NCBI GenBank assembly: GCA_964631415.1
Contig: CAZVZC010000041.1
Span: forward strand, 1-16,775
Length of the DNA: 16,775 nt
Source of the DNA: an uncultured archaeon
Lineage (GTDB): Archaea; Asgardarchaeota; Thorarchaeia; Thorarchaeales; Thorarchaeaceae
Reading direction: 5' to 3'
Numbering within the stretch: the stretch's first letter is position 1; each line of letters starts with the position of its first letter. The notes beneath the pieces were generated by a model. It was not told the origin of the DNA, ran no database searches, and was given only the letters and a program-made list of their open reading frames with translations. Made by a program: the position numbers and the translations under genes. This document shows positions 95 to 16,775 of the stretch, in pieces.

Positions 95-346
95 ACACTC
101 AGCAAGCAGGATGGTGACACGTGAATCCCTTTTCAAGTGCCACTCGGACTATCTTCCATCAAGCCCTGCAGCTGTACTGGAAGCAGCGACAGAGGCTCGG
201 CAAGACCATTACTTCTTCGTGTATATCCCCATTGTCTGTGCTGACTCAATCTTGTGAGTTTCACACATCTCTCGAAAGTTCTTCCTGGTTGCGCCCTTCA
301 GAGCCGGGACATTCAATGTATATATGGTGAAGAAGCACCTATGAGT

Positions 347-534
347 ACCGTTCATTGTAAGTTGGACAAAGTTGGACACAGGAGTCTTTGTCCGCCCAGA
401 AACGGCACTGGGGTCTTACTCCTTGAGGCCAGTCTGTGTCGGGTCAACCTCAAAGAGATGTGTGGTTCGAGCTATTTAAGCCCCTACTCGAAAATGTCCA
501 AGATTGTCCAACTTCTACTCAGCTGTTGCATACC
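347..534 (-). mobile_element. Non-autonomous insertion element (MITE-like, IS607-type ends), copy 1: 182-bp body 350-531 flanked by ACC (GGT on the minus strand)
   Basis: Differs from copy 2 by 14 substitutions and no indels. Sits precisely inside a gene. AAGTTGGACA x2 at 359-378 and an inverted TGTCCAAGAT-TGTCCAACTT at 495-514. No transposase. Confidence 0.9.
348..451 (-). ncRNA. Predicted structured RNA within the element (omega-RNA-like scaffold candidate); also present in copies 2 and 3
   Basis: CTTAAATA TATA box at 480-473 places a predicted TSS near G451. Hairpin 453-445/431-423. Second hairpin 422-418/385-381 with inner stem 412-408/399-395. Loop hexamer 440-435 is complementary to 380-375 (pseudoknot) and invariant in all copies. 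Confidence 0.5.
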
Positions 535-961
535 CGATGGTGGTGCAGGACCACCCCACTTCTTCTCCCGAAAGTCGTTCTCCTCTTGCACACCGGGCAC
601 AGGCCCACCAGACTGTATGGACTTCGTTGTCGGGGATATGCTGTGCACCAGCCAGTGTATCCAGTCGCCTACCGGTGCATCAGGGTCGTTGCAGATCAGG
701 GCAAAGCTCTTGGTCCCTGCAGGAACCTGATCCCATGCCAAATGCGGGCTCGTGTTTCCCTTCCTGTACGCACATCTGTCAGGAATGGGTGCCCCTTGGG
801 CGAAATCACTGGATGACAATTTCACGGGCGTTCAACTCCTTCAACGTCCACTACTACTGTACAAGCTCGTACTTCTGTCTTACCATCTACTCACGTTAGC
901 GGAGGCGTCTTCTTCAGGGGTCTATGTCGCCACGCTTAAAACCGGTCCCGTGTTCGCTCAG

Positions 962-5244: not shown

Positions 5245-5432
5245 ACCGTTCATTGTAAGTTGGACGAAGTTGGACACAGGAGTCTTTGTCCTCCCAGAAA
5301 CGGCACTGGGGTCGTACTCCTTGGGGCTGGAATGTGTCGAGTCAGCCTCAAAGAGACGTCTGATTCGAGCTATTTAAGCCCCTACTCGAAAATGTCCAAG
5401 ATTGTCCAACTTCTACGCAGCTGTTGCATACC
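5245..5432 (-). mobile_element. Insertion element copy 2 (intergenic; body 5248-5429 flanked by ACC)
   Basis: Full-length, ~92% identical to copy 1, with the same boundaries and orientation. Starts 6 bp after the stop of the thrC-like/PadR gene. Confidence 0.9.
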
Positions 5433-5538
5433 CTTCTCTTGTGTAACATAGGAGAAGTGTTTTAACAGCTGGTACATAGTGAATATAGAGGACAGACCTC
5501 AACGGATGTCCTGTATTGTGACATAGAGGTTGGGAAGA

Positions 5539-13556: not shown

Positions 13557-13904
13557 AACCACCTAGTCTAACCGGTTCAGTCTGGAGGCAGTGACATAGC
13601 ACAAGTGGAACTGCCTGCAGACCGAACCGACTGCGCTTCTTTTCTTAAGTGATTTCTGTCCTGAATGACTCTGACGGGTTCATAATATGCCCACAGATTG
13701 CAGGCCGAATGACGATTGACAGAGGTGGTTTCATGGTCCCAAAAAGGACATCGGGGTGCACTCATCAAGGCCGGGGTCCGTCACTCGATGCCAAATGAAA
13801 ACCCGGTCAAGAGCTATTTAAGACTGCATTCAGATTTCCCGCACTGTCCATCTCCTAGTGAACTTCTACATGCCGTGCATTAATCCTGCGGCCGGAGCGG
13901 TGCT

Positions 13905-16675: not shown

Positions 16676-16775
16676 ACCGTTCATTGTTAGTTGGACAAAG
16701 TTGGACACAGGAGTCTTTGCCCTCCCAGAAACGGCACTGGGGTCGCACTCCTTGAGACTGGAATGTGTCGAGGCA
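16676..16775 (-). mobile_element. Insertion element copy 3 (truncated by the window end)
   Basis: ACC-GTTCATTGTTAGTTGGACAAAGTTGGACAC...; 7 differences from copy 2 over 97 nt; same orientation and boundary. Confidence 0.88.

Follow-up and report, generated by a model that had tools for sequence, protein, structure and literature searches.

The window, i.e., the whole 16,775-nt stretch of DNA analysed here, is the entire contig C41 of G000, a Thorarchaeota (Asgard archaea) MAG of 2.16 Mb in 81 contigs that is 85% complete. Four copies of a protein-free element of 185 bp, without any gene, lie in it (Table 1), and all four of them share one orientation. Three of the copies, at 347, at 5245 and from 16676 onward, had been reported as free of indels by the initial annotation and were found again at 91-93% identity: copies 1 and 2, delimited as 347-535 and 5245-5433 in a repeat search of the window, are 93% identical and ungapped, and copy 3 is 91-93% identical to the full copies. 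Eight contig ends in G000 stop inside the repeat, so that the shortness of copy 3 is ascribed to truncation by the assembly. Copy 1 disrupts a PEBP/YbhB-like gene at the Gly codon of ...PPSG/THR..., and once 185 nt are deleted from it, a PEBP/YbhB-like frame of 143 codons results, which runs collinear to the intact gene in the sister genome G002.

Table 1. Coordinates of the element copies, their parts and the related genes (window positions unless a locus is named)
Feature	Position	Strand	Description
Split PEBP/YbhB-like gene	209-825	-	pieces 535-825 and 209-349, split by copy 1
Copy 1	347-534	-	182-bp body 350-531 between GGT 347-349 and GGT 532-534
Copy 1, left end	495-531	-	17-nt terminus ATGCAACAGCTGAGTAG, then two 10-bp putative TnpA-site repeats (AAGTTGGACA ATCTTGGACA)
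Copy 1, TATA-like box	472-480	-	CTTAAATAG, about 21-25 nt before helix P1
Copy 1, omega-RNA-like scaffold	347-453	-	ends at the right-end boundary
Copy 1, helices	P1 445-451/425-431; P2 418-422/381-385; P3 hairpin 395-412	-	
Copy 1, pseudoknot	436-440 with 375-379	-	436-440 in the P1 loop
Copy 1, right end	350-378	-	repeats TGTCCAACTT x2 (359-378) and 9-nt terminus ACAATGAAC
Copy 2	5245-5432	-	intergenic; anatomy as copy 1
Copy 2, parts	left-end repeats 5393-5412; TATA 5370-5378; scaffold 5245-5351; right-end repeats 5257-5276	-	
Copy 4	13698-13871	-	decayed, CTTAAATAGCTC still visible; profile match E 2e-5
Copy 3	16676-16775	-	right end and scaffold only, cut by the contig end
TnpA of the parent	L037 1501-2127		208 aa; MerR-HTH/HTH_17 and resolvase (Pfam PF00239, E 6e-17)

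An nhmmer profile search of the genome found ~37 credible copies or fragments in G000, a number far in excess of chance; ~26 of them are near full length. The copies occur once in ~58 kb on average and take up roughly 0.3% of G000, a moderate expansion and not the large one that had first been supposed. The density in the window, with four copies in 16.8 kb, is ~14 times the G000 average. The copies in G000 are 84-94% similar, while the G002 copies show 96-100% identity to copy 2 of the window; judged from this lower similarity in G000, transposition activity looks older there and recent in G002. The element was found in 18 of the 24 searched genomes of the same family (Thorarchaeaceae) and in none of the 16 genomes searched from other families of the phylum. 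The exact 23-mer of its right end (RE), sought among 185,579 species genomes, occurs only in archaeal MAGs, Candidatus Thorarchaeota among them.

Ends and insertion sites

The copies read GGT-ATGCAAC...ACAATGAAC-GGT on the minus strand, the layout that had been described before. The two termini, ATGCAACAGC... and ...ACAATGAAC, are unrelated and terminal inverted repeats are absent, in agreement with the initial annotation; inversion between the ends is confined to the subterminal 10-mers. In copy 1, the tandem AAGTTGGACA x2 at 359-378 lies 9 bp from one end and the inverted counterpart repeats at 495-514 lie 17 bp from the other end, exactly as had been noted. The left-end architecture of copy 1 recurs upstream of tnpA both in the parent element L037 (see below) and in contig C76 of G000, and the subterminal repeats are kept in 27 parent right ends.

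Each insertion adds 185 nt, namely the 182-bp body and one GGT. Three clear empty sites were found in all, each with a single GG(T/C). Two of them are in G002, where the site of copy 1 reads GAGT-ACC-AGACGG, with a single ACC/GGT, and that of copy 2 reads CCAAG-GCC-CTTCC, with a single GCC/GGC. The third one, AAAAA-GGT-TCGG, is in G000 (contig C1) and is occupied by a copy in G003, a genome of the same genus. This last site came from the reverse search, in which the flanks of 22 G002 and G003 copies were compared with G000 and yielded one clear empty site, two shared occupied sites and one site that was too diverged, the others being unmatched or too diverged. The empty sites with a single trinucleotide, which had earlier been reconstructed from the copies, are thus matched by real ones (GGT and GGC in G002, GGT in G000).

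The left flank on the tnpB strand reads R-a-G-G-G-T, with G at -4, -3 and -2 in 23/26, 21/26 and 22/26 copies, respectively; the base after GG is T in 17 and C in 6 of these 26 copies, and 21-22 of the left junctions have the GG. At the right end, ...AATGAAC-GG-T, the GG is present in 27-28 of 29 junctions and is followed by right flanks of random sequence in the copies genome-wide. Young copies in G002 and G003 show nAGGGT at the left junction. The genome-wide flanks therefore display the (G)GG(T) preference and no longer duplication, as the initial annotation would have it. The left base after GG co-varies with the left-end subfamily, which fits a crossover at GG with the next base being part of the element. 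A target-site duplication is apparently absent, yet the repeated unit GGT is formally compatible with a 3-bp duplication, and one of the empty sites is GGC.

A second subfamily of mini-elements was observed in G003 (L019:3630-3817 and L020:418-605). Its left half, GGGT/CGCGGCGCGCCGAAAATCTGGACAAACTTGGACA..., is unrelated, and its TATA position and scaffold are unchanged. Such an unrelated left half with a common scaffold shows that the left part has arisen repeatedly or has been turned over. The matches in G003 that span only positions 80-189 were considered as parent right ends and rejected; they belong to this second gene-less subfamily with its different left half.

The parent element and its proteins

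An element of 8.15 kb in G003 (contig C3, L037 1424-9571), which interrupts an N6/N4 DNA methylase gene, has ends that are near-identical to those of the mini-element, with GGGT/TGACAACAGCTGCCTAGAAGTTGGACAATCTTGGACA at the left and ...TTTGTCCAACTTACAATGAACGGT/ at the right. It is a long copy with shared ends enclosing a serine tnpA and a tnpB, and bears out what had been proposed for the parent. The best solved relatives of its TnpA in the PDB are the IS607 transposases ISC1904, ISC1926 and IS1535 (E 3e-25 to 4e-17). Its TnpB is split into frames of 506 and 185 aa and has PF07282 at the C-terminus. Two minus-strand cargo genes, of 312 and 1223 aa, are located between tnpA and tnpB, and neither has a match in Pfam, NCBIfam or PDB, Cas1 included. 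A spacing of ~8 kb from tnpA to tnpB was also observed in G006, G011, G022 and G023.

The left end of the repeat on the plus strand of the window is the RE that follows tnpB, and tnpB 3' ends run into the mini-element's right end at 27 loci of kin. Within G000, contig C2 contains the 3' part of a TnpB with an in-frame TAG that runs into this right end, and contigs C32 and C19 read ...HADVNAARNIL... and then RE. Contig C76 (L008:2-560, minus strand) contains a fragment of an IS607-type tnpA (PF00239, E 2e-15); upstream of it, GGT, 17 nt and then AAGTTGGACA AAGCTGGACA form the left-end layout of the mini-element. TnpA residues 1-146 are fused in frame to the tail of TnpB (...DRLARFGGVWIVNPAWTSQTCS) in this contig, which is therefore a deletion derivative. 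The left end also adjoins tnpA in G011. In G009 (contig C1), overlapping matches to TnpA and TnpB suggest a similar fusion.

One intact cognate tnpA and one intact cognate tnpB are assembled in G003, the latter with a 725-aa frame in contig C16 (L111:1-2079). Neither G000 (85% complete, repeats unassembled) nor G002, the genome with the youngest copies, has an intact cognate TnpA or TnpB in its assembly; these are incomplete MAGs. The TnpBs tied to the right end of the mini-element (L111, L090-L103) have frames of 710-770 aa, roughly twice the usual size of TnpB, and are recognisable only in the C-terminal part with RuvC and zinc finger (PF07282; weak Cas12g/TnpB matches in the PDB). A TnpB-like protein of 562 aa in contig C59 of G000 (L006:1093-2781, minus strand), with PF07282 and a weak OrfB_IS605 match, was considered as the cognate one and rejected, as it has 27% identity and is without a matching right end.

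By every sequence-testable criterion, the element is a non-autonomous derivative of the IS607 family. Insertions are polymorphic between the sister genomes, the G002 copies are 96-100% identical, and the shared ends flank a serine TnpA in G003; we infer a mobilisation in trans by an IS607-type TnpA. The initial annotation had called the element a non-autonomous IS607-type MITE. The IS607-type derivation stands, with the serine TnpA lying between the shared ends, but the strict label of MITE falls, because terminal inverted repeats and a target-site duplication are both lacking; the term is suitable only if taken loosely, for a miniature element that is not autonomous.

Fold and TATA-like box of the interior

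Beyond the initial annotation, the interior does not appear to be filler: it has a TATA box and a covarying fold, and probably encodes an omega-RNA. Between subfamilies, conservation is much stronger in the right 107 nt than in the left half. Of this right part, the last 65-70 nt are common to the RE of 27 tnpB loci from kin and are the only part that is clearly shared with the sequenced parents. P1 and P2 align weakly to tnpB 3' ends in 5 loci, and the codons PSAVSGRT are still readable in the stretch shared with the tnpB 3' ends.

The fold is composed of two helices, a hairpin and a pseudoknot (Table 1). Among the 47 copies within the genus, 91.7% of cells are paired vs 32-49% with the partners slid, and double changes occur in 12 pairs vs 0 of 500 shuffles; the copies are kin, which inflates the shuffle tests both within the genus and across genomes. 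A covariance model built from the fold finds full-length matches in 30 of 41 family genomes, up to 64 per genome. In the cross-genome alignment (A3), which takes one match from each of these 30 genomes and is fitted to the model, so that its pairing counts are inflated, 95.2% of cells are paired vs 79% in the shuffled alignment, double changes occur in 14 of 17 pairs, and compensatory cells number 73 vs 15.7 expected. The P3 hairpin co-varies among the 27 tnpB loci (CCCAG/CTGGG, TCCAG/CTGGA, GCCAG/CTGGC and CCCAC/GTGGG), and in two lineages the pseudoknot has GACAG/CUGUC in place of GACAC/GUGUC. G-U pairs in the fold outnumber A-C mismatches (39 vs 10), which favours an RNA on the tnpB strand. 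Single sequences of either strand did not fold more stably than shuffles (z 0.0 to -0.5). An RNAalifold consensus from the full-length alignment contained the fold in part only, and the search of Rfam, at gathering and with E up to 10, found nothing relevant, RAGATH-18 included.

Gene-less copies of many genera have a box of the form TTTATATA/TTTAAATA ~25 nt before P1; its distance is fixed, and it is kept while the surrounding sequence diverges. Matches inside tnpB have coding sequence in place of the TATA box. The covarying fold, the right-end continuity with tnpB and the TATA box together lead us to read the element as a left end, a promoter, an omega-RNA scaffold and a right end. It is most likely, as judged from these features, that the interior carries its own promoter and a TnpB guide-RNA scaffold.

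Proposed mechanism, alternatives and known systems

We regard it as likely that the repeat is a non-autonomous IS607-family element carrying a promoter and a TnpB omega-RNA scaffold. TnpA dimers supplied by an autonomous copy would bind to the TTGGACA repeats of the two ends and bring these ends together; conservative exchange within the GG core would then release the element in circular form, and the circle would insert at another (G)GG without target duplication. The TATA box may drive a ~105-nt RNA (P1, P2, P3 and pseudoknot) on the tnpB strand. As the predicted RNA ends exactly at the transposon boundary, read-through would extend it into the adjacent host sequence, which would serve as a guide. 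A TnpB produced elsewhere could then use the RNA to cut element-free alleles, with a TAM of about AGGGT plus the right flank, and repair would copy the element back, a step borrowed from published IS605/IS607 work.

A bolder and rather doubtful extension is that the mini-elements constitute a dispersed, self-renewing guide-RNA library, in which one ~720-aa Asgard TnpB would police dozens of loci; in polyploid cells, its cutting of alleles that lack the element would lead to the gene-less elements being copied back. If true, this would explain why mini-elements outnumber the parent by more than ten to one, and it would amount to a natural system of RNA-guided homing with multiple guides in the Asgard archaea, the archaeal lineage nearest to the eukaryotes, in which Fanzors arose from IS607-linked TnpBs.

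The element might instead be a plain IS607-type MITE with an interior devoid of RNA function, whose stems are owed to descent from a few master copies, to leftover tnpB 3' sequence or to DNA needs of the transposase. We hold this to be unlikely. Its appeal lies in a folding energy no better than that of shuffles, in shuffle tests inflated by the kinship of copies, in the cognate TnpB not being assembled in G000 or G002, and in the overlap of the 3' strand of the pseudoknot with the TnpA-site repeat, which is hence constrained anyway. However, P1 and P2 lie outside the putative TnpA sites and their pairing is kept through many double changes across 13 genera, the asymmetry of G-U over A-C is strand-specific, and a canonical TATA box persists at a fixed distance amid diverging sequence. 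The own promoter, the many copies and the 3' ends that differ by locus could also suit a host-domesticated small RNA or a dispersed array of guides that would act on other loci in trans, in regulation or defence, instead of being selfish, and RNA-guided repressors derived from TnpB exist (bioRxiv 10.1101/2023.11.30.569447). Such domestication is nevertheless highly improbable: copies decay, the sister genomes differ in their insertions, a gene is destroyed by copy 1, and the 20-nt right flanks are without a second match in G000 beyond chance 14-17-mers, which fits selfish homing and argues against a host guide array.

Least credible of all is that another enzyme mobilises the element, whether a Y1 transposase, a DDE transposase with a constant 3-bp duplication, or an Asgard Cas1-like integrase linked to TnpB elements. 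In formal terms, a site-specific cut-and-paste enzyme could leave a constant 3-bp direct repeat; Asgard archaea do have aCas1-TnpB elements (PMC10691335), and the 8-kb parent has two unannotated cargo genes. Against this, the cargo proteins match neither Cas1 nor another family, and a genome search of G000 found no gene for a Y1 transposase, one of the alternatives that the initial annotation had named. The shared ends flank the serine TnpA in G003, the left end adjoins tnpA in contig C76 of G000 and in G011, and inverted termini are lacking. A GG core, a preference for (G)GG and subterminal repeats at unequal spacing together make up the IS607 signature (PMC6188088).

Compared with known systems, the element read as an IS607-family carrier of an omega-RNA scaffold adds one more example to an already known type of hitch-hiker and involves no new mechanism. 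IS607 has no inverted termini and makes no duplication, has GG at its ends and target with (G)GG preferred, and carries subterminal repeats (PMC6188088). The Thorarchaeota element resembles insertion sequences of this family (IS607, IS1535, ISC1904/ISC1926; PMC6188088, PMC4058570) in its termini, GG junctions and (G)GG preference, in short subterminal repeats at unequal distances (here 17 nt and 9 nt), and in a partner TnpA with MerR-HTH and serine recombinase. In contrast to them, it is a gene-less element of 185 bp in an Asgard archaeon, with a parent TnpB of about 710-770 aa and, in some parents, ~5 kb of cargo of no recognised kind.

Mobilised omega RNAs that stand alone are functional in trans (PMC10691335, citing Altae-Tran 2021; bioRxiv 10.1101/2023.03.14.532601). 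Together with PATE-like IS200/IS605 derivatives, they are likewise described there as protein-free and multi-copy, with both ends and a right-end scaffold, and as dependent on TnpA and TnpB from elsewhere (bioRxiv 10.1101/2023.03.14.532601; PMC10691335). In these same accounts, those elements have palindromic ends and move as single strands by Y1, whereas the Thorarchaeota element has IS607-type ends and a GG core; it also differs from them in an evident archaeal TATA promoter fused to the scaffold.

In the case of CboIStron, CboTnpA integrates strictly at GG and the TGGG motif is the TAM (bioRxiv 10.1101/2023.11.20.567912). Its mini-IS is likewise an element without tnpA and tnpB that is moved by a serine TnpA; the strict GG with an upstream G (TGGG, here AGGG(T)), which doubles as the TAM of TnpB (here a predicted one), and an omega RNA with a pseudoknot (likewise predicted here) are further likenesses. 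The CboIStron mini-IS was engineered in the laboratory, measures ~800 bp and includes a group I intron, whereas the Thorarchaeota element occurs naturally, has 185 bp and lacks an intron. RAGATH-18-derived reRNAs (PMC11061315) are likewise guide RNAs at the 3' end of IS607 tnpB; in view of the lack of an Rfam match to RAGATH-18, the scaffold seems to be a different one. In the literature searched, we found no description of a natural gene-less omega-RNA element of the IS607 type or of this Asgard family.

With a left end of 37 nt, a right end of 29 nt and a defined target logo, the element offers a clean, natural and minimal substrate for an archaeal IS607 serine transposase. It also offers a candidate for the guide-RNA scaffold of an unusually large Asgard TnpB, which is compact and has a fold backed by covariation. 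It also accounts for many contig breaks, one disrupted gene and signals of 'conserved intergenic RNA' in Thorarchaeota MAGs.

Copies in tandem were seen at two places in G000. At C14:41172-41519, a decayed copy is directly followed, head to tail, by a young copy (...ACAAAG-GGC-TGACAACAGC...), and at C16:34770-34795 a lone 20-nt remnant of a left end lies after the right end of another copy. Head-to-tail arrangements are to be expected because GGGT is regenerated at each left junction, if GGGT is itself a preferred target.
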